A stretch of DNA of 64,000 nucleotides from an uncultured delta proteobacterium (lineage in GTDB: Bacteria > Desulfobacterota > Binatia > Binatales > Binataceae), in the NCBI GenBank assembly GCA_963808235.1, contig CAWEEQ010000001.1, positions 96,001-160,000 of the forward strand, read 5' to 3'. Under the pieces are notes generated by a model that made no database searches, was not told the DNA's origin, and saw only the letters and a list, made by a program, of their open reading frames with translations. The position numbers and the translations under genes are program-made. Positions 32,946 through 57,686 of this stretch are shown one piece after another; position 1 is the first letter of the stretch; every line of letters starts with the position of its first letter.

Positions 32946-32961
32946 TGCAATGATGGTGCCG
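32946..32961 (-). promoter_or_regulatory. sigma54 -24/-12 promoter for the FAAL operon
   Basis: Minus strand CGGCAC-CATCA-TTGCA. Confidence 0.8.
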
Positions 32962-33167
32962 AGGGTTCCAAGGGTCGCTTTCGCGCCTCGCCTCTGATCT
33001 CGCGGATGTTTCAGGGGGCGAGGCAAGTTCGGCAACATAACTGGCACCTATGATGACGAATGCTCGCCAGACTTGGCGGATTCTTGCACCTGTTGGCCAT
33101 TGCTCCCGCAGACCGCCATCGCGAAAAAATATCGGCTCACGATGCAATAGCCTCGCTTCGGTGCCGA

Positions 33168-34429: not shown

Positions 34430-34804
34430 ATGGCTACTGAATTCGATCGCGCTCGCAACGACACATCCAAATTAACCGCCGGCGCGATCGAGACATGGCT
34501 GATCGCCCAGCTGGCCGAACGGCTGGGCATCGACCAAAACGCGATTGAGCCGACTTGTCCACTCGGAGACTATGGGCTCGATTCGGTCGATGCGGTTGGC
34601 CTGGTCGGAGACCTCGAGCGCTATCTCCATCGCCAGCTTTCTCCCACGCTTACCTACGAGCACGCAACCTTGCGCGTCCTTGCGCACCACCTCGCGGAGA
34701 GTGAGTCGCCGGTTCCGACCTTATACGCGCAACGCCGGGCAAGCTTGCAGCGCGCAGCGATTGCAAGCCGGCGTGGTGCGCCGCGCGTGATGCGGATCAG
34801 TTAG
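34430..34804 (+). CDS. Acyl carrier protein of the FAAL-partner type
   Basis: YGLDSVDAV, LSPTLTYEHAT. Confidence 0.88.
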   Translation: MATEFDRARNDTSKLTAGAIETWLIAQLAERLGIDQNAIEPTCPLGDYGLDSVDAVGLVGDLERYLHRQLSPTLTYEHATLRVLAHHLAESESPVPTLYAQRRASLQRAAIASRRGAPRVMRIS

Positions 34805-41494: not shown

Positions 41495-41507
41495 CAGGAC
41501 GTTGATC

Positions 41508-44500
41508 ATGGAACAGCTCTTCGAAGATCCATCGCTCGTTGGGAACACAGGCTACGAACTCTCGCCCGAGCAACAACACGTCTGGACGTTGCGATCTCAG
41601 GGCGCCGCAAATGCCGTGCAGTGCCGAATTTTGCTGCGCGGACCGGTCAGGCCGGAATTGATCGCTGACGCGCTGGCGATGCTCGTGAAGCGTCACGAGA
41701 TTCTGCGGACGGTCTTCGTTCAACCGCATGCCGGGAGTGATCCTTTACAGGTGGTGCTTCCCGAACTCGCGCCCGACATCGAGACTGTCAGCTTGCGCGG
41801 TCTGTCATCCGGACACCGTCATGAAGCCGTCTCCGAACTCGCCGCCGGCGAATTTCGCAATGATGACGCGCGGAGAGTGCCGGGACTGCGTGCGTTAGTA
41901 ATCGAGATCGCGCATGACGAGTACGAGTGTGTTCTCACCGTTGATTCCATGTACGCCGACCAACGCACGCTCGACTACCTGATGGCAGAATTTGCGGGCT
42001 GCTACGAATGTTGTGCGCGCGGAGGTGCGCGAACCGGCGACATTATTCAATATGCGGACTTCGCAGCCTGGCATAACGACATTCTCAACAGCGATGCCGC
42101 CGAGGTTGGCAAGGGGTTCTGGAGAGAAAGCGGTTTGGCGGCGGCCACTCATCCCCAGCTGTCGTACGAGAAAGGCACGGTGCGCGGGAACCACCTCTCT
42201 CCGAGGATTGCAACCGTCAATCTCGATCGACGTCTCGTGAGTGAAATCGAAGAAGTATCGCGCACGCTGGATTCCCGGCCCGCCGACTTTGTGATGTTGT
42301 GCTGGCAGACGGTCCTGTTTCGAAATACGCTGCAAAGCCCGGTGGTCGTGTTTGAAAGTTCTGACCAGCGCAGCGAAGGCGCCACCATTGGTCTCTTCAG
42401 CAGATGGCTTCCCATCGACACCCAGCTTTCACAAAGCTCGCGCTTCTCCACCAGCTTGCGAGAGTTGACCGGTCGTATCGATCGGGCGGCGGAATGGAGG
42501 GACTACTACGCAGAAGTCGACTGCGAACGCGGAGGTATCGCGTTCGAGTTCATCGACGAATTTTCCTCGATCGACGCCGCGGGCGTTCGGGTTGCGATCC
42601 GTGATCGCTTCGCGCCGGCGCCACAGTTCAAGCTATGTATGACGTGCTTCCGCCACGAAGATGCTTGGCAATTGGCCCTGCAGTTCGACACAAACGTCTT
42701 CACCACCGAGCAGGCGGAGAGTCTTCTGGCGCAGACCATCGAAGTGCTCCGAACGGCGACCGTGGCTTGCGATTACCTAATCCAGGATCTCGCTCTGATC
42801 GACTCACAAGCCGGCCACAAACTTATCGCGCATCTGAACCAGACTCAGACCGCTTACCCGCGTACGGCATCGCTTCAAGTCTTGTTTGAAACCCAGGCCG
42901 GCCAACAGACTGAGCGGGTCGCGGTGCGTTTCGGGGAGCAAACGCTCACCTACGAGGATCTCAGCGAACGCGGTAATCGCATCGCACTTCGACTCGCGGC
43001 CTTGGGAGCCAAGCCGGGTGACGCGGTCGGGCTCTGCCTCGAGCGCGGGATCGAAATGCCGATCGGCGTGATCGGAATCATAAAAGCCGGATGCGCATAT
43101 GTGCCTATCGATTGCGAATGCCCGCGCGAACGCGCGCATTTGATGGCCCGTGATGCCGGTCTGCGGCTCGTCTTGACCGACGCACGGGGAGCGGAGCTCT
43201 TCTCGAATGTTGAAGGCGTCAAATCTGTCGATATCAGTTTGACTCTGCTCGAGACGCCTAACCTCGGCAATCCGGCGTGCGCAACGGATGGCGACAGCAT
43301 CGCGTACGTCATGTACACGTCGGGATCGACCGGTGTCCCCAAAGGAATAAGCATTCCGCATCGCGGCGTCTCACGCCTGGTTGTCGACACCAACTACGTC
43401 TCTATAAAACCGGGCGATTCTATCGCGCAGGTCGCGAATTGCGCTTTTGACGCCGTAACGTTCGAGATTTGGGGGGCCCTCCTCAACGGCGCTGAATTGG
43501 TGATCATCCCGCGAGAGATCGTGCTCTCGCCGCAGGAATTCGCCGACGCTCTGTCCCGGCGGCCGATTAGAGCGATGTTTCTGACTTCCGCTCTGTTCAA
43601 CCAGGTGGCGCAGACGATTCCACATGCGTTCCACACGGTAGACACTCTCCTGGTCGGCGGAGATGCGCTCAATCCATTGTGGATTCGCAAGGTGCTTTCG
43701 TGCGAGGGGAGGCCGCGTCGCATCCTGAATGGCTATGGCCCGACGGAGAGCACCACCTTCGCTTGCGTGTTCGAGGTGAAAGAGGTTGCACAAGATGCCG
43801 TCGCGATTCCGATCGGAAAGCCAATCGCGAACACCGAGGCGTTCGTGCTCGACCACTGTCTGCGGCCGCTTCCGCCAGGCGTTCCCGGCGATTTGTTCAT
43901 CGCAGGCGACGGCTTAGCGACCGGATACCTGAACGATCCGAAACGAACCGCTTTTTCCTTTTTAGCGAATCCTTATGCCATACCCGGCTCGCGCATGTAC
44001 CGGACCGGCGACATCGCCCGTCTGCGTTTCGATGGGAATTTCGACTTTCTGGGACGCAACGACGATCAAGTCAAAGTACGCGGTTTCAGAATCGAGCTGG
44101 CCGAAATCGAAGCTGCGCTGATTGCGCATCCGCGAGTCGAGTCGGCGGCTGCAATTGTGCGGTCGGACCCTTCAGGCAACAAACGGTTGATCGCATACTA
44201 TGTCGAAACGGCTGGCGCGGAGGCCGCCCTGACCGTCGCCGACTTGCGGGCCTTTCTCTTAACTCGATTACCGGAGTACATGCTGCCAGCAGTTTTTCTC
44301 AGACTCGATACCCTGCCGCTGAACCTCAACGGCAAACTGGATCGAACGAGATTGCCGGAGCCCGCTGAGGTTGAGACAGAGTTCACACGCGCGCCAATTG
44401 CGCCACGCAACTCGGTCGAGCAACAACTGTCGGACATCTGGAGAAAAGTCCTCAACCTGAAAGAAGTCGGGGTGAAGGATAATTTCTTCGAGCTCGGTGG

Positions 44501-45998
44501 AGATTCGATTCTGAGCATACGCGTGGTCACCGAGGCCCGGAAATTGGGCATCGCTTTGACGCCCAAACGCTTTCTGCAATGTCAAACGATTGCCGAATTG
44601 GCTGCGGTCGCATCGTCGGAAGCTGGTTCCGATTATCCCGATTCGGAACCGCTGGCAGGATCGAGCGCGCTGTCCTCTTCTCAGGCATGGCACTTCGATC
44701 AGCCAGGCCCTGACTTTCATCACTACAACATGGCGATTCAATTGCAGGCACGCAGACCGATCGATGTCCATGTGCTCGAAGCAGCGGTGAACGCTTTGTT
44801 CGACTATCACGACGCGCTCCGTCTCCGGTTCCGCATGGGTGCGGAAGGCTGGCAGCAATCCACGGGCGACCGGTCAACGGCCACCCTGCTCACCACGATC
44901 GATTTGAGCCGTCTGGCGGACAGCGAGGCTCGCCAAAAAGCCCTGGACGATGCCACCAGCGAGATCCAGGCGAGTCTCGATCATTCCGACGGCCCGCTGA
45001 CCAGATTTGTCTACTTCGAGCTCGGAAAAGATTCGCCGGGCCGCCTGCTGATAGTCACTCATCACCTCGTAGCTGATGCGGTGTCGTTGCGGATTCTGGT
45101 CGAGGATCTTTTGACTGCTTACGAACAAATTAGTGGAGGCGGGCCGATTGCACTGCCTGCCAAGACCGCATCCTACAGCCGATGGGCCGATTACGTTAAC
45201 CGCCGCGTACGGCAAGGCGCTCTGGATCATGAACTGCAGTACTGGATCGAGGAGCTATCGCAGGCGAATGCGCCGGTTCGAGTTGATCGGAGTATAGATC
45301 CGGTCCAGGTCGACACGGAACAGTGGTCCCGGTCGTTCGTCGAGCGGCTGACTTCGGAAGATACGCGATTCCTTCTTCAGCATGCGCCCACCATTTACAA
45401 ATCGCAGTTCCTCGAGCTGCTGCTGGCTGCATTCGCTCGCTCCTTCGCCCGGTGGAATCGCGATCGCTCGGTCTTTATCGACCTTAGTATTCACGGCCGC
45501 CAGGACTTTGACGAGGAGGCACCCGACATCTCCCGCTCGGTCGGATGGTTCAGCGGGCTAACGCCCCTTCGTCTCAATTCATGCGGCATGGATGACCCCG
45601 GCTGCGACCTGAGCATCGTCAAGCGCCAACTGGCGCGGATGCCCAACGGCGGCATCGGTTACCAGATGATTCGCTATCTCGGCATGGAGTCGGAACAGAC
45701 GCGGGCCCTGCGAGCGCTGCAGGGTCCAAAGGTCTGCTTCGCGTATCTAGGCCAGTTTGATGAAAAGATCCTGGACCAACCCATCTTCGAGCTTGTACGC
45801 GCCAATAACGGACCTGCTCGAAGTGCTCGAAACGCCAGGCGATATACCCTCGAAGTGTTCGTCGGAGTGGTCAATCAACAACTCGAAATCGAGTGCAACT
45901 TCAGCTCGCTGCGCTACGATGACGCGAGCATTCGCGCGCTGCTTGAGGAAATGGCAGGGGCTCTCCGCGCGCTCAAACAGGATTCCAGAACCGCATAG
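41508..45998 (+). CDS. NRPS: degenerate C (interface-like) - A - PCP - E-like domain
   Basis: YTSGSTGVPKG, NGYGPTE, YRTGD, LGGDSI, HHLVADAVS, RSVGWFS, FAYLGQF. Confidence 0.92.
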   Translation: MEQLFEDPSLVGNTGYELSPEQQHVWTLRSQGAANAVQCRILLRGPVRPELIADALAMLVKRHEILRTVFVQPHAGSDPLQVVLPELAPDIETVSLRGLSSGHRHEAVSELAAGEFRNDDARRVPGLRALVIEIAHDEYECVLTVDSMYADQRTLDYLMAEFAGCYECCARGGARTGDIIQYADFAAWHNDILNSDAAEVGKGFWRESGLAAATHPQLSYEKGTVRGNHLSPRIATVNLDRRLVSEIEEVSRTLDSRPADFVMLCWQTVLFRNTLQSPVVVFESSDQRSEGATIGLFSRWLPIDTQLSQSSRFSTSLRELTGRIDRAAEWRDYYAEVDCERGGIAFEFIDEFSSIDAAGVRVAIRDRFAPAPQFKLCMTCFRHEDAWQLALQFDTNVFTTEQAESLLAQTIEVLRTATVACDYLIQDLALIDSQAGHKLIAHLNQTQTAYPRTASLQVLFETQAGQQTERVAVRFGEQTLTYEDLSERGNRIALRLAALGAKPGDAVGLCLERGIEMPIGVIGIIKAGCAYVPIDCECPRERAHLMARDAGLRLVLTDARGAELFSNVEGVKSVDISLTLLETPNLGNPACATDGDSIAYVMYTSGSTGVPKGISIPHRGVSRLVVDTNYVSIKPGDSIAQVANCAFDAVTFEIWGALLNGAELVIIPREIVLSPQEFADALSRRPIRAMFLTSALFNQVAQTIPHAFHTVDTLLVGGDALNPLWIRKVLSCEGRPRRILNGYGPTESTTFACVFEVKEVAQDAVAIPIGKPIANTEAFVLDHCLRPLPPGVPGDLFIAGDGLATGYLNDPKRTAFSFLANPYAIPGSRMYRTGDIARLRFDGNFDFLGRNDDQVKVRGFRIELAEIEAALIAHPRVESAAAIVRSDPSGNKRLIAYYVETAGAEAALTVADLRAFLLTRLPEYMLPAVFLRLDTLPLNLNGKLDRTRLPEPAEVETEFTRAPIAPRNSVEQQLSDIWRKVLNLKEVGVKDNFFELGGDSILSIRVVTEARKLGIALTPKRFLQCQTIAELAAVASSEAGSDYPDSEPLAGSSALSSSQAWHFDQPGPDFHHYNMAIQLQARRPIDVHVLEAAVNALFDYHDALRLRFRMGAEGWQQSTGDRSTATLLTTIDLSRLADSEARQKALDDATSEIQASLDHSDGPLTRFVYFELGKDSPGRLLIVTHHLVADAVSLRILVEDLLTAYEQISGGGPIALPAKTASYSRWADYVNRRVRQGALDHELQYWIEELSQANAPVRVDRSIDPVQVDTEQWSRSFVERLTSEDTRFLLQHAPTIYKSQFLELLLAAFARSFARWNRDRSVFIDLSIHGRQDFDEEAPDISRSVGWFSGLTPLRLNSCGMDDPGCDLSIVKRQLARMPNGGIGYQMIRYLGMESEQTRALRALQGPKVCFAYLGQFDEKILDQPIFELVRANNGPARSARNARRYTLEVFVGVVNQQLEIECNFSSLRYDDASIRALLEEMAGALRALKQDSRTA

Positions 45999-46223: not shown

Positions 46224-46239
46224 TGGCAGGCTCTTTGCG
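46224..46239 (+). promoter_or_regulatory. sigma54 promoter for the extender-unit operon
   Basis: TGGCAG-GCTCT-TTGCG ~45 bp upstream of 46285. Confidence 0.75.
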
Positions 46240-46284
46240 ATACACCCATCCGAACAGCCACTTGGAAGTGAGGGCCACACCACA

Positions 46285-47136
46285 ATGAAATACGATGTCG
46301 TCGGCGTTCTGGGCGCGGGAGTGATGGGCAGCGGTGTCGCCCAAGCGCTCGCGGAGCATGGACATCGAGTGGTTCTGGTCGACAGCTCCTCCGATGCGTT
46401 GAAGTCTTCGCAGCGGCTGATCGGCAAGAACATCCGGCTCGCCTGCTTGCTGAACAAGGAAGCCCGGCCCACCACCGATGCGATCTACTCGAGGATCAAT
46501 TTCTCGACCCGCTTCGACGCTCTCGCTGAAGCCAGGTTCGTAGTCGAAAACGTTACCGAAAACTGGTTCATCAAAGAGTCGGTCTATCGGCAACTCGATC
46601 GAACTTGCAGCCCGGAAGTGTGTATCGGCGTCAACACCTCCGCGATCTCCATCACCAAGCTCGGTTCGATCACAAACCGGCCTGGGCAGGTGATCGGAAT
46701 GCACTTCATGAATCCTGTGCCAGTAATGCCGACCGTCGAGTTGATTCGCGGCTATCACACTTCCCAGGCAACCATAGAGGCGGCGCAGACGCTGGTCGCG
46801 GATATGGGCAAAGAGTCGATCCTGGTCCAGGACTCACCGGGCTTCGTGACAAATCGGGTAATGATGCTGATGGTCAACGAGGCGATCTTCCTGGTGCAGG
46901 AGGGAGTAGCCACTTCGCAGGAAGTGGATCGGCTCTTCAAGACCTGCTTCGGCCACAAGATGGGGCCGCTAGAAACCGCTGATCTGATCGGCCTCGATAC
47001 CATTCTGTATTCAATCGAAGTCCTGTCCGAGAGCTTCGACGACAGCAAATACCGGCCCTGCACGCTACTCAAGAAGATGGTCAGCGCGGGATTGCTGGGA
47101 CAGAAATCGGGCGAAGGGTTCTATCGCTATAGCTGA
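46285..47136 (+). CDS. 3-hydroxyacyl-CoA dehydrogenase, FkbK/ZmaG/ClbD-like
   Basis: GAGVMG, VENVTENW, NTSAISIT, HFMNPVP, CFGHKMGPLETADLIGLDT. Confidence 0.88.
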   Translation: MKYDVVGVLGAGVMGSGVAQALAEHGHRVVLVDSSSDALKSSQRLIGKNIRLACLLNKEARPTTDAIYSRINFSTRFDALAEARFVVENVTENWFIKESVYRQLDRTCSPEVCIGVNTSAISITKLGSITNRPGQVIGMHFMNPVPVMPTVELIRGYHTSQATIEAAQTLVADMGKESILVQDSPGFVTNRVMMLMVNEAIFLVQEGVATSQEVDRLFKTCFGHKMGPLETADLIGLDTILYSIEVLSESFDDSKYRPCTLLKKMVSAGLLGQKSGEGFYRYS

Positions 47137-47187
47137 TCTAATTCTAATTCCGGCGCAACCCGGCACTTGCCAACACAGGCGGTCATT

Positions 47188-47448
47188 ATGGAAGCAACTG
47201 ACAAACTCAACGGATTCTTTTCGAAAAGCTTCGCAGGTCGGCAACTTCATCGCGACGACGACATCTTCGCATCGGGCTTCGCCAATTCGATGTTCGCGAT
47301 GCAGCTCGTTAACTTCATCGAGAAGGAGTTTCGGGTCGAGATCGAAAACGAAGATCTGGACCTGGAAAACTTTCGCACGATCGACCGGATCGCGAACCTC
47401 ATCGATCGCAAGCAGACAGCCAGCCGAGTCTCTGGGTCGGCGTCATGA
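47188..47448 (+). CDS. Extender-unit ACP, FkbJ/ZmaH/ClbE-like
   Basis: DDDIFASGFANSMFAMQLV (NS rather than DS attachment motif), DLDLENFRTI. Confidence 0.88.
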   Translation: MEATDKLNGFFSKSFAGRQLHRDDDIFASGFANSMFAMQLVNFIEKEFRVEIENEDLDLENFRTIDRIANLIDRKQTASRVSGSAS

Positions 47449-48260
47449 TGGACGGAGTTCAAAGTTCATTCGAACCTCGGCGCGACGAAGCCGCGGTTCA
47501 GCTTGCCAAAGGATCGTGGGCGACGATCGCCGAGCTACGCGGTTCCGCCCGGATGCGACTCTTCTGCTTTCCCTATGCCGGCGGCGGTTCCTGGATCTTC
47601 AATCGATGGAGTGACGGTCTTGGACCATCGTTCCAGATCTGCCCCATCCATCTCCCTGGCCGTGGCATAAGGTTTCTCGAAAGGGCGATGCGCAGGGTCG
47701 ACGAAGTCGCAGTAGCGGCAGCGCGAGCGCTCGCGCCACAAATCAACGCGCCGTTCGCCGTTTTTGGACACAGTTTCGGAGGCTTGGCGGCGTTTGAATT
47801 CGTGCGCGAACTCCGACGGGTGGGCGCGCCACAGCCAGTTGCGTTCGTCGCTTCCGCTTGTTCAGCTCCACAAATCCAGCGCGCGCGGCATGGTCTCCAT
47901 CGCCTTGAAGAAGGTGATTTGCTGGCAGCGCTGAGGCACATGGGCGGCACTCCCGAGCCGATTCTTCGGGACACAGAGTATATGCGGATGGTTCTGCCGA
48001 CTATTCGCGCCGACTTCGAAGCGCTCGAGACTTACGAATACCAGGATGAGCCACCGCTCGATTGTCCAATCACGGTCTTCGGAGGCAAGGACGACCGCGG
48101 GATGACTATCGAACAACTCGCGGGCTGGTCGGATCAGACGACGGCTGGCTTCAGGCTTCGCATTCTGGCCGGCGGACATTTCTTCCTGTCCACTCACGAA
48201 GCCGACCTGATGCCGCTCCTGGCTCGCGAGTTTGACGCTGCGCTATCTGCGGCAACCTGA
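47445..48260 (+). CDS. Stand-alone (type II) thioesterase
   Basis: LFCFPYAGG, FGHSFG, GGHFF. Confidence 0.92.
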   Translation: MMDGVQSSFEPRRDEAAVQLAKGSWATIAELRGSARMRLFCFPYAGGGSWIFNRWSDGLGPSFQICPIHLPGRGIRFLERAMRRVDEVAVAAARALAPQINAPFAVFGHSFGGLAAFEFVRELRRVGAPQPVAFVASACSAPQIQRARHGLHRLEEGDLLAALRHMGGTPEPILRDTEYMRMVLPTIRADFEALETYEYQDEPPLDCPITVFGGKDDRGMTIEQLAGWSDQTTAGFRLRILAGGHFFLSTHEADLMPLLAREFDAALSAAT

Positions 48261-48270
48261 GGCAAGCACC

Positions 48271-49419
48271 ATGATGGATTCTACTACTTGCGAGAACGAA
48301 GTCCGTTCGGAAATCAGAGCCTTCGCGGTGGAGAAAGTCGCACCGCTTGCCGAGATCGTGGACCGCGAGCAGCGCATTCCTTCCGAAGTTCTTGATGGAT
48401 TGCGACGCAGATTTCTGGGTTGCGCGCTGCCGCGCGCGGCTGGCGGTGGCGGTATAAGCCCGGTCCTTTACGGGGTCATGAATGAGGAGCTGGGCCGCAT
48501 CAGCGCGTCCGTGCAGGGCGTGCTCAACGTCCACAACATGGCGTCTCAGCCGGTGGCGCGCTGGGGCGATCGCCAATTGAAAAATCGATGGCTGCCGCGG
48601 CTAGCCGGCGGAGAGCTGCTCGCCGCGATCGCGATCACCGAAGCCGCGGTCGGTTCGAATGCTGAGCGAGTGCAGACCACCGCCCGCCCCTCGGGCGATC
48701 ACTATGTTCTGAATGGCGCAAAACGATGGATAACTTGTGGTCAGATTGCCGACGTATTCCTGGTGCTCGCGCGATGTGGTGAGCTCCCGACTGCATTCCT
48801 TGTTCGGCGCGATACACCCGGTCTCGCCGTCGAACCGATCCGCGACATGCTGGGCTGTCGCGGCTACATGCTCGCCGAGTTGACGTTCAGCGATTGCCGC
48901 GTGCCAGCTCAGGATCTGGTTGGAAGGCCGGGTTTTGGTTTCTCGCACGTGATCTCGCACGGCCTCGATGTGGGCCGCTACGGACTCGCTTGGGGGTGCG
49001 TCGGGCTGGCGCAAGGCTGTCTTGACGTCAGTATTGAATATGCGTCCAGACGCGAGCAGTTTGGCTCTCTCATCCGCGATCACCAGTTGATTCAGCGTCT
49101 GATCGCGAACATGTCGGTCGGCGTCAAGGCAGCGCGGCTGCTATGCCGCGAGGCAGGCCGCCTGCGCGCCGACGGCGAGCCCAGCGCGATCGTAGAGACC
49201 ACGACTGCAAAGTACTTCGCTTCGCGGGTATGCGCCGACGCGGCGCGCGACGCGGTCCAGATTCATGGGGCCAACGGCTGCAGCCGGCGGTATGCGGTCG
49301 AACGTTACTTTCGCGATTCAAAGATCATGGAGATCATCGAGGGCACCTCGCAGGTGCTCGAACTGTTAATCGCCACCCATGCTTACACCGATCACGTCGC
49401 AGCCGCGGCGGTCGATTGA
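48271..49419 (+). CDS. Acyl-CoA/acyl-ACP dehydrogenase, FkbI/ZmaI/ClbF-like
   Basis: GAKRWITCGQIAD, AWGCVGLAQ, AVQIHGANG, DSKIMEIIEGT. Confidence 0.88.
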   Translation: MMDSTTCENEVRSEIRAFAVEKVAPLAEIVDREQRIPSEVLDGLRRRFLGCALPRAAGGGGISPVLYGVMNEELGRISASVQGVLNVHNMASQPVARWGDRQLKNRWLPRLAGGELLAAIAITEAAVGSNAERVQTTARPSGDHYVLNGAKRWITCGQIADVFLVLARCGELPTAFLVRRDTPGLAVEPIRDMLGCRGYMLAELTFSDCRVPAQDLVGRPGFGFSHVISHGLDVGRYGLAWGCVGLAQGCLDVSIEYASRREQFGSLIRDHQLIQRLIANMSVGVKAARLLCREAGRLRADGEPSAIVETTTAKYFASRVCADAARDAVQIHGANGCSRRYAVERYFRDSKIMEIIEGTSQVLELLIATHAYTDHVAAAAVD

Positions 49420-49431
49420 GGGATAACACCA

Positions 49432-50631
49432 GTGACGTACACGCAAAGCTATGACATTTCCGGGATGGATTCCGCCCTTGTTGAGCACATCACGAGCACG
49501 ATCCGGATCGGGCGCGAAAGCTTGGACTCGTGGTCAATCGACGAAAACTCGAAGACTCTCTTCATCGAGACGGGCAATCGCCAGGCGCTCGACTATATAG
49601 ACGGTTTCGTCGATCACGTCCGCGGCACGCGCAAGAAGCTGCGCAGCAAAGAGCTTCTCTCCAACTCAGCGCGAGATCTGTATCAGGGAGATATCGATCG
49701 CGACCTCGCGGAATCCGGTGAGGTGTTGGAACTGGACGCAGGCCTGGTCGGATTGCGCGGTACCTTGCTCGGACTGTTCCGGTTCTTCGAAAGCGAGTTC
49801 ATCGCGATAGCTCGCGAGTATCGAGCGCAAGAGCATCACTATCCAGTCATGATTCCGATCCGTATTCTCGAAGAGCTCAAATACTTTGAACATTTCCCGC
49901 AACAGGTAACCTTCTGTTCGCATCTGCCGGAAGACTTGCCGCTCCTCAGCGGTCTCGCCGAAGACGTCCACGCAAATGCGGGATGCTTGTCGGCGGCGCA
50001 GCGCGAGCGCCTTGCTCCGGCCAATCACGCCCTTAAGCCGGCCGTGTGCATCCCATGCTACCGGCAATACCGCGACACAACGTTGCCGCCGGGTGGAATC
50101 GCCGTGACGATGCAGAACCACGTTTACCGCTACGAGGGGGCTAACTTCCGGTCGCTCAGCCGGCTTTGGGACTTCTCGGTGCGAGATATCGTGTTCTTCG
50201 GCGAGGGCGACACCCTGGTTCGTCTGCGACAGGAGGCTGCGTCCCGCGCGATGTCGCTGTGCATAGAGCTCGATCTCGAGGCAAAGATTCAACTGGCCAA
50301 CGATCCTTTCTTTCTCGATCAATCTCGCGACAAACGAATCTATCAGCGCATGGGCGAGGTCAAATACGAACTGGTCTTGCCGCTGCCGCATCGCGGGGGC
50401 GAACTGGCAGTTTCGTCGTTCAACCTCCACCGCGACTTCTACAGCAGCGTTTACAACATTCGCATCGAAGACGGATCCCTGGCCGAGACTGCCTGCATGG
50501 GTTTCGGTGTAGAGCGATGGTTGTACGGTTTCTTGAGCCAGAAGGGACTCGACGCCCGGCGATGGCCGTCGCGAATCAACGATTTTATTCGAAGCAACGC
50601 CGCCGCGAGCGGCTCAGGACCAAACCCATGA
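49432..50631 (+). CDS. Class II aaRS-like (atypical SerRS-related) amino acid:carrier protein ligase
   Basis: KPAVCIPCY, YRYE..RLWDFSVRDIVF (motif 2), ANDPFF, KYEL, SFNLH, TACMGFGVERW (motif 3). Confidence 0.8.
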   Translation: MTYTQSYDISGMDSALVEHITSTIRIGRESLDSWSIDENSKTLFIETGNRQALDYIDGFVDHVRGTRKKLRSKELLSNSARDLYQGDIDRDLAESGEVLELDAGLVGLRGTLLGLFRFFESEFIAIAREYRAQEHHYPVMIPIRILEELKYFEHFPQQVTFCSHLPEDLPLLSGLAEDVHANAGCLSAAQRERLAPANHALKPAVCIPCYRQYRDTTLPPGGIAVTMQNHVYRYEGANFRSLSRLWDFSVRDIVFFGEGDTLVRLRQEAASRAMSLCIELDLEAKIQLANDPFFLDQSRDKRIYQRMGEVKYELVLPLPHRGGELAVSSFNLHRDFYSSVYNIRIEDGSLAETACMGFGVERWLYGFLSQKGLDARRWPSRINDFIRSNAAASGSGPNP

Positions 50632-52361
50632 CGCTCCATAACTCAGGTTCCAGGAGTACGAGTTTCATCGACGCCCTGATAACCGGAAGATGCGATTGGT
50701 CGCTCATCACGCCGTTTCCTTCTCAGCCCAGGGAAGACAAAGCGATCGGTGATCAATTTCTTCGTCGGTTTGAATCCGACTTGCGCAGCACGATCGATCC
50801 AAACGCCGGCACCGACGATGAGAAAATCGCGCTTTCGTCAATCGCGGCATTAGCCGACAAAGGCTACCTCGGATTGCGCATACCATTGGAATATGGCGGC
50901 GCTGGCCTGTCTGAGCACAACTACTTCAGGGCGCTGAGCCTCGCGGGAACCTGGTGTTTGTCGACTACCTGCACGCTGCTTGCGCATTCGAGCATCGGAC
51001 TGACCGGACCGCTACTGCTGTTTGGCAGCGAAGAGCAAAAGCGCAAGTTTCTTCCGCTACTGGCGCGCGGCGCACTGTCGGGGTTTGCCTTGACCGAGCC
51101 TGACGCCGGGAACGACTACAGCCGGACCAGGAGCGTGCTTGTGCCGGTTGATGGAGGATACCTTCTGAGCGGCGAGAAGCTCTTCATTACCAACGCACCC
51201 ATAGCCCAGTTTCTCTGCGTATTTGCCAGGTTGGGCAATGCCGTTGATCAATATGCGTTGGTGATCGTGGAGACTGATCGGCCTGGCTTTTCCGTAGTCG
51301 AGCAATGCTCCTTCCTTGGATTGCCCGGCATTCACAACGGCCTCGTCAGATTCGATAACGTGAGAATTCCTCGCGATGCCGTTATCGGCGAGCTAGGACA
51401 CGGGTTCGAGCATCTTCTCGATGCGGCGACCGGCGGCTGGATGACGCTTGCTTCGGTTTCTTCAGGAGTATCGCGCCATTGCTTACGGATATTGCGCGAT
51501 TGGGCCAATCGCCGTGTTCAGTGGGGTAGTCCAATCGGAAAGCATGAGGCGATCCAGAGGATCCTCTCCAAGGCAGCCGCTCACGTTTATGCGATCGATA
51601 ACCTCTCGAGTCTGACCGTGGCTGCCGCTGGAACTATATCTCCCGGGTTCAGAACCCTTGCCCGCATAGCCAAGTACTTCGGCCAGGAACAATGCTGGCT
51701 AATCGTCGACGATTCCTTGCAGGTCTGCGGGGCGCGTGGCTACGAGACGCTGCGCTCGGCCCGCAAGCGCGTAAATGCATGTGCGTCCGACGAGGTGCAG
51801 CATGAAGAGCTGCTGGCGCCTATCGAGAAGGTCTTCCGGGACTTCCGTCTCTTCAGACTCGCCGAGGGATCGAGCCAGACCCTCCCGCTCATGATGTCGC
51901 TCGACCTCTTGTCAGCTACCGCCGCGGAACCGTGTGGCGTTCCGTCGGTAGATCCGACGGTGATCCGCAGAAATCTGCCTCTGCTTAGTGACGAAAATCT
52001 GCGACACGCCGCCTTCGTTGGTACATCCGCCGCGCGACTCGCTCATGAAGTCCGCGCCAGTCTCAACAAATACGGTGCGGAGCTGCAGGCCGAACAGGAA
52101 GTCCTGATTGCCCAAGGCGACATTCTGACCGATCTGGTCGCGATGAGCGCGAGCCTCTCGCATGCGGGCTCCGAACATTCGGATGAACATGTGACAGAGG
52201 CAGAGCAGGAACTCACCGATCGGTTCTGTCTATACGCCGAGCATCGCATAAATCGGAACTTCGATCGAATTCGCAACCATGAGGTGGGAGCATATTCCCC
52301 CATAAGCGAACGCCTTTTGAGTGGCGGACTGGATTGGATGATGCGCGACATCGTCAGTTGA
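50628..52361 (+). CDS. Long acyl-CoA dehydrogenase with C-terminal extension (VLCAD/ACAD9-like)
   Basis: FALTEPDAGND, GEKLFITN, RVQWGSPIGKHE, GARGYE, RLAEGS; ATGA overlap with the ligase gene. Confidence 0.85.
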   Translation: MTLHNSGSRSTSFIDALITGRCDWSLITPFPSQPREDKAIGDQFLRRFESDLRSTIDPNAGTDDEKIALSSIAALADKGYLGLRIPLEYGGAGLSEHNYFRALSLAGTWCLSTTCTLLAHSSIGLTGPLLLFGSEEQKRKFLPLLARGALSGFALTEPDAGNDYSRTRSVLVPVDGGYLLSGEKLFITNAPIAQFLCVFARLGNAVDQYALVIVETDRPGFSVVEQCSFLGLPGIHNGLVRFDNVRIPRDAVIGELGHGFEHLLDAATGGWMTLASVSSGVSRHCLRILRDWANRRVQWGSPIGKHEAIQRILSKAAAHVYAIDNLSSLTVAAAGTISPGFRTLARIAKYFGQEQCWLIVDDSLQVCGARGYETLRSARKRVNACASDEVQHEELLAPIEKVFRDFRLFRLAEGSSQTLPLMMSLDLLSATAAEPCGVPSVDPTVIRRNLPLLSDENLRHAAFVGTSAARLAHEVRASLNKYGAELQAEQEVLIAQGDILTDLVAMSASLSHAGSEHSDEHVTEAEQELTDRFCLYAEHRINRNFDRIRNHEVGAYSPISERLLSGGLDWMMRDIVS

Positions 52362-52547: not shown

Positions 52548-53297
52548 ATGATTTCCAATGCAGTAGAATTCGAGCGAGTTTTGCGGACCTATCGGCGCGG
52601 CGAGTTTGAGGTCATAGCGATCAATGAAGTCTCGCTGGTGATTCCTCAGGGTAAATTCGTTGCGATAATGGGTCCGTCGGGCTCCGGCAAAACGTCGATT
52701 CTGAACCTCATCGCCGGAATTGATCAGCCCACTTCCGGGCGTGTCATGGTCTCTGGCAGCGACCTCGGCGCACTGAGCGAGCGTGAGCTTGCACGCTGGC
52801 GGGCGCACAACGTCGGTCTGATTTTCCAGTTCTACAATCTGATTCCGGTACTGACTGCCGGAGAAAATGTAGAGCTGCCGTTGCTTCTTACCGAACTTCC
52901 AAAGTCCGAGCGGCACTCTCACGTCGAGGCTGCGCTGAGGGTCGCGGGGCTCGCCGATCGCATCGATCACTACCCCAGCCAGCTTTCAGGCGGTCAGGAA
53001 CAACGCGTAGCGATAGCGCGCGCACTGATTACGGACGGCGCGATCATCGTCGCAGACGAGCCTACCGGAGACCTCGACGCCAACTCGGCCCACGAGATCC
53101 TCACATTGATGCGTGAGCTGAGCCGTCGTCACAACAAGACCGTAATCATGGTGACACATGACCCACGCGCAGAGCGCTACGTCGACACGGTGTTCCGGAT
53201 GGACAAAGGCGTGCTGGTCAGCATCGAAGATATGGCGCGAGGGCCGCAACCTCGCCCCGAATCGACGGTCGAACTCGCGCACGTCGGCCTTGGCTAG
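52548..53297 (+). CDS. ABC transporter ATPase, MacB/LolD type
   Basis: GPSGSGKT, LSGGQEQRV, ADEPTG, VTHD. Confidence 0.93.
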   Translation: MISNAVEFERVLRTYRRGEFEVIAINEVSLVIPQGKFVAIMGPSGSGKTSILNLIAGIDQPTSGRVMVSGSDLGALSERELARWRAHNVGLIFQFYNLIPVLTAGENVELPLLLTELPKSERHSHVEAALRVAGLADRIDHYPSQLSGGQEQRVAIARALITDGAIIVADEPTGDLDANSAHEILTLMRELSRRHNKTVIMVTHDPRAERYVDTVFRMDKGVLVSIEDMARGPQPRPESTVELAHVGLG

Positions 53298-53331
53298 GAT
53301 GCGGACGATCTGAATACCGGAGGCAATCTCT

Positions 53332-54471
53332 ATGGATACCCTGTGGTTGATTTTGAAAAACCTCAGACGAAACCGGCGCCGCACGATACTGACGTTGGTT
53401 TCAATCGCGATGTCGTTGTTCATTTTTTCCGCATTGGTGAGTCTGCCGGGAGCAGCGCGCGAGATGCTTGGCGCGACCGCATCATCGCTTCGCGTGACGA
53501 CTCACAGCAACGTCGGCCTGACATATCCGCTTCCCGAGGCGCTCGGACGCAAAATTGCGGCATTGCGACATGTGCAGGCGGTCGCTGCAGTAACCTGGTT
53601 TGGAGGAATATATGATCAGCCCTCCAACCAGTTTCCGAACTTCGCCGTGGATCACGAACAGTTCGGCAAGATTTGGCCGGACTGGGGCGCATCGCGCCAA
53701 TCGCTCTCTGAATTCCAGAAGAATCGCATCGCGTGCCTGGTGGGACCTTCCACGATGCGGCGTTTCCGCTGGCACGTCGGACAGCAAATCATCCTACGCG
53801 GCGTGTTCGTTCCGGCCACGATCACCCTTCAAATCGCGGGAGAGCTTGGTGAGAAGGCGGCTGATTTTCTGATTTTTCGTCGTGACTATCTACAAGAAGT
53901 CCTCGGCCAGCCGCTGTGGGTCAATAACTTCTGGCTCCACGTCGATCGCCCCGAGTCGATTCCGCGGGTGATTGCGGAAGTTGACGAAACGTTTCGCAAT
54001 TCCGAGAATGAAACTCGCAGCGAATCGGAGGCGAGCTTCCTGGGGGGGATCTTTGGCAGCTATCGATCGCTGTTTGCAATCGCCGAGGTTCTCGGCCTGA
54101 TCGTGATCGCTGCGATCGTCCTGGTCGCCGCCAACACCGCCGCCATGTCGATTCGGGAGCGACGGGTCGAGGTCGCAGTGTTGCGCTCTCTCGGCTTCAC
54201 CTCAGACACGGTATTTGTCCTTTTGATCGGCGAGTCGATACTGCTGGGCGCGGCAGGAGGTCTGCTCGGATGCCTTGCATGCTATGGCGTCTTCAAGCTG
54301 ATGGCGGTTGGCGCAGCGGCGCTGGGTCCTATGGCCGTGATCAAAATGCCGCCCTGGGTGCTTGGCCAAAGTCTCACAGTGGCGGTTCTGATTGGCTTGT
54401 TCAGCGCACTGGTTCCGGCCTTCAATGCGTCGCGGCGCAATATCGTAACTGCTTTGCGCGAGGTGGGGTAA
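53332..54471 (+). CDS. ABC permease, MacB/FtsX type
   Basis: KNLRRNRRRTILT, IRERRVEVAVLRSLGF. Confidence 0.9.
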   Translation: MDTLWLILKNLRRNRRRTILTLVSIAMSLFIFSALVSLPGAAREMLGATASSLRVTTHSNVGLTYPLPEALGRKIAALRHVQAVAAVTWFGGIYDQPSNQFPNFAVDHEQFGKIWPDWGASRQSLSEFQKNRIACLVGPSTMRRFRWHVGQQIILRGVFVPATITLQIAGELGEKAADFLIFRRDYLQEVLGQPLWVNNFWLHVDRPESIPRVIAEVDETFRNSENETRSESEASFLGGIFGSYRSLFAIAEVLGLIVIAAIVLVAANTAAMSIRERRVEVAVLRSLGFTSDTVFVLLIGESILLGAAGGLLGCLACYGVFKLMAVGAAALGPMAVIKMPPWVLGQSLTVAVLIGLFSALVPAFNASRRNIVTALREVG

Positions 54472-54473
54472 TC

Positions 54474-55637
54474 ATGGCAATTCCAATCCGATACAACATT
54501 CGCAATCTGATGGCGCGGCGCACGTCGACAATCATGACGCTGGGCGGAATCGGGCTGGTGGTCGGAATCTTCACGCTGATGATGGCGATGGTTTCCGGTC
54601 TGCGCAAGGCGATCGTCAGCACTGCCTCGCCTGACAACCTGGTCGTGGTCCGCAAGGGATCGACTACTGAAACGAATTCCACGATCTCGGTCGAACAATT
54701 CAACGCTATGCGTTTTCTGAGAGGGGTACGCCACAACGCTACAGGCGAGCCTCTGGCCTCACCGGAACTAACGATGCAGGTCTTCTTGCAGCGCGTCGGC
54801 GGCGGCAGCGACAACATAGTCGCGCGCGGCGTTCTGCCAATCGCGATGGAAGTTCACGAGGGGATAAAGCTGGTCGCGGGACGCATGTTTCGGCCGGGTC
54901 TCAAGGAGGTCGTCGTCGGCTCGAATCTGCCCGGTCGTTACCAGAACTGCAAATTAGGTTCGACCCTGCGCTTCGGCAGAGATCAATGGAAAGTCGTTGG
55001 CGTATTCGCGGCGCGCGGCAGCTCCTTTGAATCCGAAATATGGTCCGACCTTCATGAACTGATCGCCGACAGCCGGCGGGGCGATTACTATTCCTCGGTC
55101 CGACTGCGTGGCGCGGGCGGCCCCGAACGAGCCGAGCTGATCAGCCGCATCGAGCGCGATCCGAGGATCAGCCTCCACGCCGAAACCGAAACCGACTACT
55201 ACGCTGAGCAATCGGTCGCCGCAAATCAGCTTGCCACGATCGGTCTGATGCTGGCTTTGGTAATGGCGATCGGTGCGGTGTCTGGAGCGATGAACACGAT
55301 GTACGCCGCAGTTGCCGCGCGGGTGCCCGAGATAGGAACGTTGCGCGCGCTGGGCTTTAGCTCGGCGAGCGTGCTGTGCTCATTCCTGTTCGAGTCGATG
55401 CTCCTGGCACTGGCCGGCGGCGTAGTAGGCGTTCTGCTGGCGCTACCGATTAACGGGTTTACCTCAAACTTCACCAATTTTTTCAGTTACTCTACTCTGA
55501 GTTTCAAATTTCAGGTCACGCCGCAGATAGTGCTGGAGGCTATTTTGTTTGCCGCCGTTATGGGCACTCTCGGCGGTCTGCTACCGGCTCGCCAGGCGAT
55601 TCGCAAGCGTCTGATTGAATCGCTCAGGAGAATCTAA
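54474..55637 (+). CDS. ABC permease, MacB/FtsX type
   Basis: MAIPIRYNIRNL, EIGTLRALGF. Confidence 0.9.
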   Translation: MAIPIRYNIRNLMARRTSTIMTLGGIGLVVGIFTLMMAMVSGLRKAIVSTASPDNLVVVRKGSTTETNSTISVEQFNAMRFLRGVRHNATGEPLASPELTMQVFLQRVGGGSDNIVARGVLPIAMEVHEGIKLVAGRMFRPGLKEVVVGSNLPGRYQNCKLGSTLRFGRDQWKVVGVFAARGSSFESEIWSDLHELIADSRRGDYYSSVRLRGAGGPERAELISRIERDPRISLHAETETDYYAEQSVAANQLATIGLMLALVMAIGAVSGAMNTMYAAVAARVPEIGTLRALGFSSASVLCSFLFESMLLALAGGVVGVLLALPINGFTSNFTNFFSYSTLSFKFQVTPQIVLEAILFAAVMGTLGGLLPARQAIRKRLIESLRRI

Positions 55638-55639
55638 CC

Positions 55640-56869
55640 ATGTCCAGCACACCAGCGATTGAAGCTCGAATAGAAGACCTGAGCCATCTGAGCATCGTCC
55701 GCTCCAAGGCCAGAATTTCCGAGCCGAGGCGCTTTCCACGTAGACTCATATTGGCTGGTGCGCTAGCGGCGGGCAGCGCGGTCCTCTGGTTTGGGGCCGG
55801 TAAGGTGACCGCCGCAAGACCGGTGACCGTTCAGACTGCGCCGGCAGAAGAACTCAGGTCGGATAGTGCCAGCGCGGTGCTCAGCGGTTCGGGATACGTC
55901 GTGACGGATCACAGCTACGTCACCGTCGGAACTTTGATCAGCGGTCAAATAGTCGCAGAGCCAATCGAAGAAGGTCAGCACGTTAAAAGAGGCGACCTGA
56001 TCGCGCAAATTGGCGATTCCGATTACCGCGCCCATCTTGGCGAAGCCAATGCCGATTACGCTCGCGCAGTCGCAGAATCTGCGTTGGCTGATCAGCGCGC
56101 AGAGCGGATGAAGCAGCTCTATAGCGAGGGCGTGACGTCGCGCGATGAATACGATTCGCTAATGAGTTCTCAGCGCGTATCGCACGCGGCGCTTGCGCGA
56201 GCCAAAGCTACGGTCGCCTACGCGGCATCGCAGGTCAGGCAGTGCGCGATACGCTCGCCTCTGAACGGGGTTGTGTTGCGGAAATTCCGCGACCAGGGAA
56301 GTACAATCAACTATAGCGTCGAACTGCAGAGCGAAGGCGGATCAACCGACATCGCGATGCTGGCGGACACCGACAATTTGCGCGTAGAGCTCGACGTGAG
56401 CGAATCCGACATCTCGAAAGTGCATGTGGGTATGCCCGCCAGCATCAGCTTGGACGCTTACCCGGACCGTAGCTTCGAAGCGAAGGTTGTCAAGATCTAT
56501 CCCGAAGCAAACCGGCAGAAAGGAAGCATCAAGGTCGAAGTCCTGCTGTTGCATCCCGACCCCACACTCATCCGCCCTGAGATGAGCGCCAAGGTCAACT
56601 TTCTCGACAAACCCGCCCACACCGGCAGCGACGCGCCCATCGTCACCGTGCCGAAGGCTGCGTTGTTCAAATCTGCGGATGGGGCGCCCTTCGTATGGAT
56701 CGTGAATGATGGCCGTGCGGAAAAGACTCCCGTCGAGACAGGACGCCAGGTCGCCGACAACGTACAGATTCAACACGGGCTTAGCGGTTCAGAAACGGTT
56801 GTCGTCGAGCCAGGGGCGAAACTGGTTGATGGTCAGGCTGTCATCGAAAAAAGCGATACTGGCCAGTGA
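55640..56869 (+). CDS. Periplasmic adaptor/membrane fusion protein (MacA/HlyD type)
   Basis: SGYVV, EEGQHVKRGD, IRSPLNGVV, ELDVSESDI. Confidence 0.9.
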   Translation: MSSTPAIEARIEDLSHLSIVRSKARISEPRRFPRRLILAGALAAGSAVLWFGAGKVTAARPVTVQTAPAEELRSDSASAVLSGSGYVVTDHSYVTVGTLISGQIVAEPIEEGQHVKRGDLIAQIGDSDYRAHLGEANADYARAVAESALADQRAERMKQLYSEGVTSRDEYDSLMSSQRVSHAALARAKATVAYAASQVRQCAIRSPLNGVVLRKFRDQGSTINYSVELQSEGGSTDIAMLADTDNLRVELDVSESDISKVHVGMPASISLDAYPDRSFEAKVVKIYPEANRQKGSIKVEVLLLHPDPTLIRPEMSAKVNFLDKPAHTGSDAPIVTVPKAALFKSADGAPFVWIVNDGRAEKTPVETGRQVADNVQIQHGLSGSETVVVEPGAKLVDGQAVIEKSDTGQ

Positions 56870-56884: not shown

Positions 56885-57664
56885 GTGAACGGCATGGGCG
56901 GCCACTGGAAAATCAGTCCAGGAGAAGTTCATCTTTGGGTCGCGGAGACGAATGCTTTCAGCGATCCCGCGCTGCTCCACGCCTGCGCCCCGCTGCTCGA
57001 TGACGATGAACTTGAAACACTGGGCAAACTTCGTGTTCAGAGCAAGCGTAACGAATTCCTCACAGCGCATGCGCTCTTACGTACAACTCTTTCTCACTAC
57101 TCGAATGTAGATCCGCACGACTGGCGCTTTCGTCGCCGCAAATACGGTAAGCCCGAGGTCTCGGCGCCGCCCGTGACCTCGCCGCCACGCTTCAATCTGT
57201 CGCATGCTGACGGGCTGGCAGTCTGTGCAATTGCGTGTGGCCCGGTGGGTGTAGATGTCGAGCAAATTAGTTCCTCTATTCCTGCGGCGGAAATCGCGGA
57301 GCGGTTTTTCACGCCAGAAGAAGCGAAGTCACTAGTTCAACTTGCTGCAGAAGACGCGCTCCAACGATTTTTCGAACTTTGGACTCTCAAGGAAGCGTTT
57401 TCCAAAGCGCTCGGCTGCGGAATCACGATCGGGTTCGATCGATTCCGATTCATCGTTGAAGACGGATCCTACCCGAAGTTTCCTGCGATCCTTGACTGCC
57501 TCCGCCCGCAAGATCCAAGTTCCAAGTGGAATTTCGTCCTCCTGCGCCCGTTCCCATCGCACATCGTGGCACTCGCAACTCAGGGGATCAGTAAGGTGAC
57601 CGTACGTTTGGGTGGTGTGCAATCGACCCTCCGGCACGAACCTGAAGCTGGACAACACATTTGA
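56885..57664 (+). CDS. Sfp-type 4'-phosphopantetheinyl transferase
   Basis: YGKP, FNLSH, VGVDVE, LWTLKEAFSKALG. Confidence 0.92.
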   Translation: MNGMGGHWKISPGEVHLWVAETNAFSDPALLHACAPLLDDDELETLGKLRVQSKRNEFLTAHALLRTTLSHYSNVDPHDWRFRRRKYGKPEVSAPPVTSPPRFNLSHADGLAVCAIACGPVGVDVEQISSSIPAAEIAERFFTPEEAKSLVQLAAEDALQRFFELWTLKEAFSKALGCGITIGFDRFRFIVEDGSYPKFPAILDCLRPQDPSSKWNFVLLRPFPSHIVALATQGISKVTVRLGGVQSTLRHEPEAGQHI

Positions 57665-57686
57665 TACGTCGAAGAGAGATAGTTCG

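Follow-up and report, generated by a model that had tools for sequence, protein, structure and literature searches.

A candidate aminomalonyl-ACP extender-unit cassette with an aminoacyl-tRNA synthetase-derived ligase in the loader position

Aminomalonyl-acyl carrier protein (aminomalonyl-ACP) is a rare extender unit that places a free amine on the polyketide backbone and is found in zwittermicin and colibactin. To our knowledge, the named loaders of aminomalonyl pathways are the adenylation (A) domains of nonribosomal peptide synthetases (NRPSs) only. A 64,000-nucleotide stretch of DNA from an uncultured delta proteobacterium of the Binataceae (GenBank assembly GCA_963808235.1, contig CAWEEQ010000001.1, positions 96,001 to 160,000; the whole stretch is called the window, and positions are counted from its first letter) encodes an operon-like cassette in which a 3-hydroxyacyl dehydrogenase (HCDH), a free-standing ACP, and an acyl-ACP dehydrogenase (ACAD1) are accompanied by a 399-residue enzyme derived from class II aminoacyl-tRNA synthetases (aaRSs). 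On the basis of its sequence, this enzyme (the ligase) is best explained as a carrier-protein aminoacylating enzyme from the lineage of the methanogen-type seryl-tRNA synthetases (SerRSs) and the ligases that join amino acids to carrier proteins (aa:CP ligases), and it very probably aminoacylates the adjacent free ACP. The full chain, in which the ligase would load serine, HCDH would oxidize the seryl group to an aldehyde, and ACAD1 would oxidize the aldehyde to aminomalonyl-ACP, is assigned a probability of about 0.6 and leans on analogy with the zwittermicin (Zma) and colibactin (Clb) enzymes. What appears to be new here is an ACP-linked extender-unit cassette with a loader from a different enzyme superfamily. 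Searches that did not extend to subscription journals and supplements found no literature on an aaRS-like ligase with an aminomalonyl-ACP or extender-unit cassette, and none joining a carrier-protein ligase with a polyketide. If the assignment is true, a loader from the translation machinery would represent new biosynthetic logic that is missed by genome-mining tools and would provide a biological context for the aa:CP ligases.

The relationship of the ligase to known families has been probed with sequence profiles. The ligase has no Pfam match. In NCBIfam it matches NF005479 (amino acid-[ACP] ligase) with 142.1 bits (E 1.8e-41) and the methanogen-type SerRS models NF002120 and TIGR00415 with 120.7 and 102.1 bits (E 6.4e-35 and 2.5e-29 for the two SerRS models). 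The first-pass annotation had tied the gene (49432-50631) to both families, and this is borne out in that both kinds of model match, but the scores lie far under the curated cut-offs (357 bits for NF005479, 489.55 bits for TIGR00415, and 611 bits for NF002120), so that the ligase reaches the threshold of neither family. The canonical aa:CP ligase of Burkholderia gladioli scores 553.7 bits on NF005479, and all tested members of the ~390-residue group to which the window ligase belongs score 130-170 bits with the aa:CP ligase and SerRS models alike. Scores this far under the cut-offs of both families place the group as a third, unnamed branch of the lineage. A 524-residue representative (P0206) likewise scores far under the SerRS cut-off.

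Active-site residues and the predicted fold point to the same lineage. PDB sequence matches for the ligase include Bll0957 (4.4e-27) and Methanopyrus kandleri SerRS (9.4e-27). Among 30 ligase homologs, C206, E235, C355, the motif 2 residue R233, and the motif 3 sequence GFG..R362 are invariant, and C206, E235, C355, R233, and R362 line up with the corresponding residues of Bll0957; the ligase thereby retains the Cys-Glu-Cys zinc triad and the motif 2 and motif 3 arginines of the aa:CP ligases. We take C206, E235, and C355 to be the Zn2+ ligands, in line with the literature on Bll0957 and Methanosarcina barkeri SerRS. The AlphaFold2 (AF2) model (pLDDT 77.9) is closest in fold to the SerRSs of M. 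kandleri and M. barkeri, followed by the Bll0957:carrier-protein complex, with E values of 3.6e-23 to 1e-19 for the methanogen-type SerRS structures (2CJ9, 3W3S). The model also contains an N-terminal extension of ~80-100 residues with the order beta-alpha-beta-beta-alpha-beta. The SerRS profiles match the ligase only at positions 223-505 of 518, and their N-terminal tRNA-binding domain has no sequence match in the ligase. Similar to the aa:CP ligases, the ligase is encoded in the same operon as a small carrier protein (the ACP at 47188-47448), the best NCBIfam match of which is NF005480 (7e-08, under the cut-off). Prediction of a ligase and ACP complex gave 0.00 in both runs, a value that is taken neither for nor against the pairing.

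At 90% identity, the close ligase family forms at least 120 clusters with E <= 2.5e-115, distributed over Binataceae, Binatia, Thermoanaerobaculia, Sorangium, Hyalangium, and Azospirillum thermophilum; its members are named 'hypothetical protein' (RefSeq) or 'seryl-tRNA synthetase' (JGI) in the source databases. A cut-off of E<=1e-3 gives the wider superfamily 1755 clusters at 50% identity; 326 of them match at 1e-30 or better. The distribution is sporadic: across 400 further genomes sampled from the phylum of the window, the ligase was found in none at E<=1e-60.

The three proteins that accompany the ligase resemble those of known extender-unit cassettes. HCDH shares 53% identity with ClbD (5e-109), 51% with ZmaG, and 60-62% with FkbH-linked homologs; the free ACP shares 44% with ClbE, 35% with ZmaH, and 44-51% with FkbH-linked homologs; and ACAD1 shares 39% with ClbF (1e-91), 39% with ZmaI, and 48% with FkbH-linked homologs. 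The FkbH-linked references are those of Nostoc flagelliforme pNFSY04 (L048) and Streptomyces durmitorensis p1 (L049). The window thus possesses an HCDH, a dedicated ACP, and an ACAD in one operon, a feature of aminomalonyl-ACP cassettes, and the same three genes constitute an FkbK/FkbJ/FkbI-type triad, a feature of hydroxymalonyl- and methoxymalonyl-ACP cassettes. The slot that follows HCDH-ACP-ACAD is occupied by ZmaJ in zwittermicin, by a HAD-IIIC/FkbH-like protein in L048 and L049, and by the ligase in the window. The phosphopantetheine-bearing serine of the free ACP, Ser41, lies within GFANS and is invariant in two homolog alignments; the N-S rather than D-S motif described by the first-pass annotation is therefore correct. 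This ACP lies in an open reading frame (ORF) spanning 47167-47448, with a likely ATG start at 47188.

Comparison with the individual systems places the difference in the loader. Zwittermicin biosynthesis (ZmaG-ZmaH-ZmaI-ZmaJ of Bacillus thuringiensis pBMB400, L050) has the dehydrogenase-ACP-ACAD-loader order and the adjoining polyketide synthase (PKS) and NRPS genes that are seen in the window. In contrast to the window ligase, the zwittermicin loader ZmaJ is an NRPS-type adenylation enzyme without sequence relation to the ligase, and no separate ZmaF-type acyltransferase (AT) occurs within the window. ZmaJ is described as loading serine on ZmaH, and ZmaE and ZmaI as pathway-specific (PMC6395733). 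In the colibactin system (ClbD-ClbE-ClbF of E. coli CFT073, L039), the gene order is as in the window and the ACP serine lies in GLVHS, which like GFANS is a non-DS motif. There, the ClbH A1 domain loads serine and a separate AT, ClbG, transfers the unit, whereas ACAD1 of the window is followed by the ligase and the sole AT of the window acts in cis and is 24% identical to ClbG. The FkbH-type cassettes are the nearest triad relatives found, and their HCDH-ACP-ACAD-loader order is identical to that of the window. The slot is filled there by a HAD-IIIC/FkbH phosphatase-acyltransferase, which supplies a glyceryl unit and so gives a C2 hydroxyl, whereas the window ligase is predicted to give a C2 amine. 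In summary of these comparisons, the cassette would work like ZmaGHIJ or ClbDEF with ClbH-A1 but without an A-domain loader, and resembles the FkbH cassettes without the FkbH loader.

The association of these genes has been examined in 34 related loci (L003-L036; 5 from genomes and 29 from metagenomes, 306 kb in all) that were found with the ligase as query. ACAD1 lies directly upstream of the ligase in every one of the 27 loci whose upstream sequence reaches 267 bp or more, the remaining 7 having 54 bp or less. Given sufficient flank, the ACP is present in 19 of 20 loci (it was not detected in L007) and HCDH in 14 of 18 (absent from L016, L018, L031, and L032); L004, L009, and L012 are among those with the window order HCDH-ACP-ACAD-ligase. 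Of the related loci, 11 have PKS and/or NRPS ORFs in the flanks that were retrieved, and 11 have a phosphopantetheinyl transferase (PPTase) gene near the cassette. The arrangement is far beyond chance and recurs in dozens of unrelated contigs. The first-pass annotation had counted the thioesterase and the second ACAD (ACAD2) of the gene run as members of the cassette, which the related loci do not support: a thioesterase recurs beside the cassette in L006, L008, and L011 and, as PF00975, on two Streptomyces plasmids, and an ACAD2 ortholog was found only in the Binataceae relative L006. Both genes are lineage-specific additions outside the conserved core.

The two Streptomyces plasmids (L041, L042) extend the association to a distant ligase. 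Each encodes a ketosynthase (KS), a thioesterase, an HCDH, a carrier protein, an ACAD, and a ligase homolog, followed by a stand-alone AT. The ligase homolog, a 397-residue 'hypothetical protein', shares 31% identity with the window ligase and keeps all three Zn2+-ligand positions. The stand-alone AT is 40% identical to the window cis-AT and contains GYSIG or GYSVG. Compact and portable, the cassette is found widely among soil bacteria, occurring in Binataceae, Thermoanaerobaculia, Sorangium, Hyalangium, Azospirillum thermophilum, and the Streptomyces plasmids; it is consequently open to direct testing with strains in culture, and it could serve to introduce amino groups into engineered polyketides. 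Several ligase-linked clusters also contain Cupin_8/JmjC-like hydroxylases (L012:11123-13553, L014:9015-9830, L022:8470-9567, L042:4489-5409), and in L012 the cassette and the NRPS are in addition separated by a CmlA-type diiron beta-hydroxylase; these enzymes suggest hydroxylated residues in the products.

A search for other loaders returned none that would serve the cassette. With three FkbH-like queries, tblastn found no FkbH-like sequence in the window, in agreement with the first-pass annotation, and none in the 34 related or the two Streptomyces loci; neither an FkbH-like (HAD-IIIC) glyceryl loader nor a Ser-specific NRPS-type adenylation enzyme is part of the cassette. Searches of the window with ZmaJ and ClbH-A1 retrieved the in-line NRPS A domain (31-33% identity) and, weakly, a fatty acyl-AMP ligase (FAAL) only; overall, these searches retrieved only in-line NRPS A domains at 29-34% identity, which corresponds to generic A-domain similarity. 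The pocket residues of the window A domain (in 41427-45998) are of the DAF.LGGTFK kind, which resembles a Val-type code and is unlike that for Ser. The first-pass annotation had reported no stand-alone A domain. This needs restating, as two FAAL/DIP2-type AMP-binding genes and the cis NRPS A domain are present, but none is a stand-alone amino-acid A domain, and none was found in the related or the Streptomyces loci either. Both FAALs have their own loading ACP ahead of the KS. The proposal that the ligase replaces FkbH or an A domain as loader is supported by the triad homology (53/44/39%), the shared slot, the 27/27 adjacency, the Streptomyces plasmids, and the lack of another loader in these loci.

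Based on these findings, a five-step route can be proposed. First the ligase, whose class II motifs and alpha-amino-binding Cys-Glu-Cys zinc site are preserved, would activate L-serine with ATP. Next, the seryl group would be transferred to the phosphopantetheine thiol of the free ACP (47188-47448), itself primed by the PPTase of the cluster. The ClbD/ZmaG/FkbK-type HCDH would then oxidize the beta-hydroxyl to the aldehyde, and the ClbF/ZmaI/FkbI-type ACAD1 would oxidize the aldehyde to the acid to give aminomalonyl-ACP. The order of the steps follows the zwittermicin pathway as reportedly set out by Chan et al. in 2006. We infer that the free ACP is the acceptor and that serine is the substrate, the latter because the two dehydrogenases require a primary beta-hydroxyl and because the zinc site of the loader is the one that binds the alpha-amino group in this lineage; the two oxidation steps are assigned by analogy with the Zma and Clb enzymes. 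Finally, the unit would most likely be passed to the KS-AT-ketoreductase (KR)-ACP module, where it probably extends a fatty acyl starter provided by the FAALs and the loading ACP, with the NRPS part acting after PKS extension. Alternatively, the unit could be the acceptor for one of two surplus condensation (C) domains. More broadly, it is tentatively proposed, at somewhat less than even odds, that the ~390-residue aaRS-derived ligases form a third general class of loader beside the NRPS A domains and FkbH, that in the window-type cassette they open an A-domain-independent route from serine to aminomalonyl-ACP, and that this would be the first physiological role for the orphan aa:CP-ligase lineage.

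The AT motifs provide additional hints about the unit. GYSxG marks the ACP-dependent ATs ZmaF and ZmaA-AT, according to Table 2 of PMC4207774. The window cis-AT (within 36233-38962) contains GHSIG together with an unusual HAYH motif. This variant of the HAFH/YASH specificity motif, with HAYH in place of HAFH, is common to the cis-ATs of the ligase-linked PKSs (the window, L012, L014, L015, L018, and L022); L015 has GYSIG in place of GHSIG, and ClbG, the aminomalonyl AT, has VPYH. The HAYH motif and the GYSxG motif of the Streptomyces ATs weakly favor an aminomalonyl unit.

Several findings weigh against the proposed route. The 142-bit score of the ligase falls below the 357-bit cut-off of the aa:CP ligase family. 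The triad is closer by sequence to FkbH-linked cassettes than to ClbDEF or ZmaGHI, and the ACAD tree, a polytomy in this part, does not separate the amino-type (ZmaI, ClbF) from the hydroxy-type (ZmaE, FkbH-linked) enzymes. That tree holds 18 of the 27 ACAD1 loci, with L005, L010, L013, L017, L018, L020, L029, L031, and L032 left out as partial or near-duplicate; ACAD2 entered with residues 1-420, and the range for L028 was shortened to end before a stop codon. The ligase-linked ACADs of Streptomyces are just 32% identical to ACAD1, and the ACAD-ligase association may therefore be old or have arisen repeatedly. The window cis-AT contains GHSIG rather than GYSxG and is 24-26% identical to ClbG and ZmaF. 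Furthermore, one TIGR01686 (FkbH-like) match above the cut-off exists genome-wide, on another contig (G000 C4:2191973-2192950). The first-pass annotation had regarded an FkbH elsewhere in the genome that serves the ACP as a threat to its proposal; an FkbH-like gene does exist, but its neighbors are radical SAM, FkbM-methyltransferase, and sugar-transferase genes, a polysaccharide-type context without a PKS nearby. The triad might nonetheless make hydroxymalonyl- or methoxymalonyl-ACP, loaded by this distant protein or by another route, with the ligase serving elsewhere. The kinship with FkbH-linked triads and the presence of the gene are consistent with such a scheme, which is regarded as quite improbable in view of the location of the gene, the absence of FkbH-like sequences from the 34 related and two Streptomyces loci, where the ligase always fills the loader slot, and the invariance in the ligase of the zinc site that binds the alpha-amino group in its lineage. 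A role in charging tRNA, either as a second SerRS for self-resistance or as a source of seryl-tRNA for tRNA-dependent tailoring, is considered highly improbable. While the best fold matches are methanogen-type SerRSs and many homologs are annotated as seryl-tRNA synthetase by JGI, the ligase has 399 residues against models of ~518 positions, of which 223-505 alone are matched, with no sequence match to the tRNA-binding N-terminal domain; its scores of 102-121 bits compare with cut-offs of 490-611; the linkage to a carrier protein and an ACAD is conserved; and a bacterial serS is present in the genome besides the ligase.

The identity of the loaded amino acid is a separate question. From the ligase, the free ACP could instead receive a small amino acid other than serine (Gly, Ala, Thr, or 2,3-diaminopropionate). 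The dehydrogenases would then produce another kind of tethered unit, such as a dehydro or 2-amino-3-oxo residue, which may be a C-domain acceptor rather than a PKS extender. Characterized aa:CP ligases prefer Gly or Ala, which counts for this alternative and against serine. The window has three C domains and just one A-T (thiolation) pair, an arrangement that would suit a carrier protein loaded in trans as acceptor, and the window cis-AT looks largely malonyl-like (GHSIG and HA(Y)H). Gly, Ala, and Ser are the substrates listed in a review (PMC9437257). Additional evidence comes from the four loci without HCDH, which are closely related to one another. Directly upstream of the ACP, they encode a PALP enzyme, an ornithine-cyclodeaminase-family protein, and a small AAA/kinase-like protein (L018:4834-7531), the first two of which presumably constitute the SbnA/SbnB-type pair known for diaminopropionate synthesis; these genes suggest that the ligase family may not always load Ser. 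The ligases of loci without HCDH differ from those of loci with HCDH in six consistent columns (Y137F, Q212L, Y304A, V310A, S328A, and L332I), three of which exchange a hydroxyl-bearing for a non-polar residue, and a different amino acid may be loaded by the former. Such variants are a hint of additional amino extender or acceptor units that have yet to be described. For the window itself, an amino acid other than serine is judged unlikely, since a malonyl-type product can arise through a ClbD/FkbK-type dehydrogenase only if the beta-hydroxyl sits on a primary carbon, the complete triad is found in canonical order in 14 of 18 loci, and the Streptomyces cassette is followed by a dedicated GYSxG AT, which points to an extender unit. 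Serine loading followed by oxidation to aminomalonyl-ACP is the preferred reading for the window cassette.

The canonical aa:CP ligases (Bll0957/Atu2573 type) share with the window ligase the class II core, the Zn2+ ligands, an adjoining small carrier-protein gene, and a neighboring ACAD. Their operons have the order ACP-ACAD-ligase-DUF1839 on plasmids of B. gladioli (L046:5368-8832) and Rhizobium leguminosarum (L047:5449-8766). In contrast to the window ligase, these enzymes are ~310-320 residues long and lack the ~100-residue N-terminal extension, and neither an HCDH nor a PKS context is seen with their operons. The canonical-operon ACAD is 30% identical to ACAD1 over 143 residues and forms a separate clade with 100/100 support; the partnership with a ClbF/FkbI-type ACAD is specific to the window-type cassette. 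We know of no biological role for the aa:CP ligases, discovered in 2010, or for the ACP-ACAD-ligase-DUF1839 operon. The methanogen-type SerRSs (M. barkeri 2CJ9, M. kandleri 3W3S) have the zinc-dependent active-site architecture in common with the window ligase, which differs from them in being ~120 residues shorter and encoded inside a biosynthetic operon.

Distant relatives of the ligase also adjoin a small carrier protein, in gene clusters of very different kinds, suggesting that carrier-protein aminoacylation is a common theme. In B. thuringiensis and Bacillus mycoides, an ACP gene is followed by the ligase gene. On a Streptomyces decoyicus plasmid (L052, 4937-9903), a 376-residue distant homolog is divergent from genes for a carrier protein and a glycine amidinotransferase in a neighborhood with DpgA-C genes and a PGM1-related peptide ligase; this may be a further cluster type where an aaRS-like ligase loads a carrier protein. 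The genome of the window also encodes a second ligase paralog of 446 residues (G000 C4:2617307-2618647; L044:8307-9647), which scores 161 bits on NF005479 and is 31% identical to the window ligase. Its neighbors encode GNAT and MBOAT (DltB-like) acyltransferases and polysaccharide-export proteins, and this system may aminoacylate a surface polymer. One database relative (P0226, 743 residues) is a ligase-GNAT fusion.

The window contains one biosynthetic gene cluster from ~29.3 to 58.6 kb (Table 1). The six genes from HCDH to ACAD2 were each recovered by domain or profile matches, as co-oriented and tightly packed on the + strand as the first-pass annotation had described them, and the run is operon-like in that stops and starts overlap or nearly touch; the ACAD2 start overlaps the ligase stop as ATGA.

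Table 1. Features of the biosynthetic gene cluster, in window positions
Feature	Position	Strand	Basis
FAAL-type stand-alone adenylating enzyme 1	29286..31169	-	PF00501 2.5e-71; PF23024 DIP2-like C-terminal domain 1e-10
FAAL-type stand-alone adenylating enzyme 2	31058..32971	-	PF00501 4.3e-65; PF23024 4.5e-06
MaoC-type (R)-hydratase/dehydratase	33429..34283	+	PF01575 8.5e-30; PF22622 1.2e-18
Loading ACP, GLDS motif, upstream of PKS	34430..34804	+	ORF translation inspected by eye
PKS module KS-AT-KR-ACP, three frames	35176..39962	+	Pfam domains
Stand-alone condensation-domain protein	39959..41494	+	PF00668 6.3e-93
NRPS C-A-T-C	41427..45998	+	Pfam
NAD-dependent 3-hydroxyacyl dehydrogenase (HCDH), ClbD/ZmaG/FkbK type	46285..47136	+	PF02737 1e-52; PF00725 1.4e-33
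Free-standing ACP, ClbE/ZmaH/FkbJ type	47188..47448	+	PF00550 4e-05
Type II thioesterase	47445..48260	+	PF00975 1.9e-47
FAD-dependent acyl-ACP dehydrogenase ACAD1, ClbF/ZmaI/FkbI type	48232..49419	+	Pfam
Class II aaRS-derived amino acid:carrier-protein ligase-like enzyme, 399 aa	49432..50631	+	NCBIfam/PDB matches
Second ACAD (ACAD2), VLCAD/ACAD9-like C-terminal domain	50628..52361	+	Pfam
MacB-type ABC exporter (ATPase, two FtsX permeases) and HlyD adaptor	52548..56869	+	Pfam
Sfp-type phosphopantetheinyl transferase (PPTase)	56885..57664	+	PF01648 1.5e-20
Alpha/beta hydrolase	57612..58637	+	PF00561, PF12697

Among the remaining genes, FAAL 1 is a probable activator of the fatty-acid starter, and the loading ACP is likely the acceptor of both FAALs. 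ACAD2 is 25% identical to ClbF and probably functions in tailoring of the lipid tail. The frame changes in the PKS result from two 1-nt shifts, at 36225/6 and 38956/7. An intact 1568-residue PKS homolog of L022 aligns over both frame junctions with zero residues lost (tblastn), and contigs from other public runs have exactly one letter fewer at 36225 (a single X2 contig of depth 3.2) and at 38955 (a single X1 contig of depth 2.4). The housekeeping bacterial-type serS (G000 C4:773511-774820) is also broken into three ORFs, which cover profile positions 1-89, 90-204, and 203-418, pointing to indel errors in the assembly and arguing that the two PKS frameshifts are artefacts too. Given the intact homolog, the contigs of the other runs, and the split serS, the PKS shifts are read as assembly indels or very recent variants and not as decay of the cluster. 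Beyond the cluster, a 1040-residue ORF without a Pfam match lies at 59564-62686 on the - strand, where the surrounding G+C is raised (0.65 at 60-62 kb), and an IS1595-family transposase is encoded at 63160-63999 on the + strand at the end of the window; together, these features possibly mark the edge of a horizontally acquired cluster.

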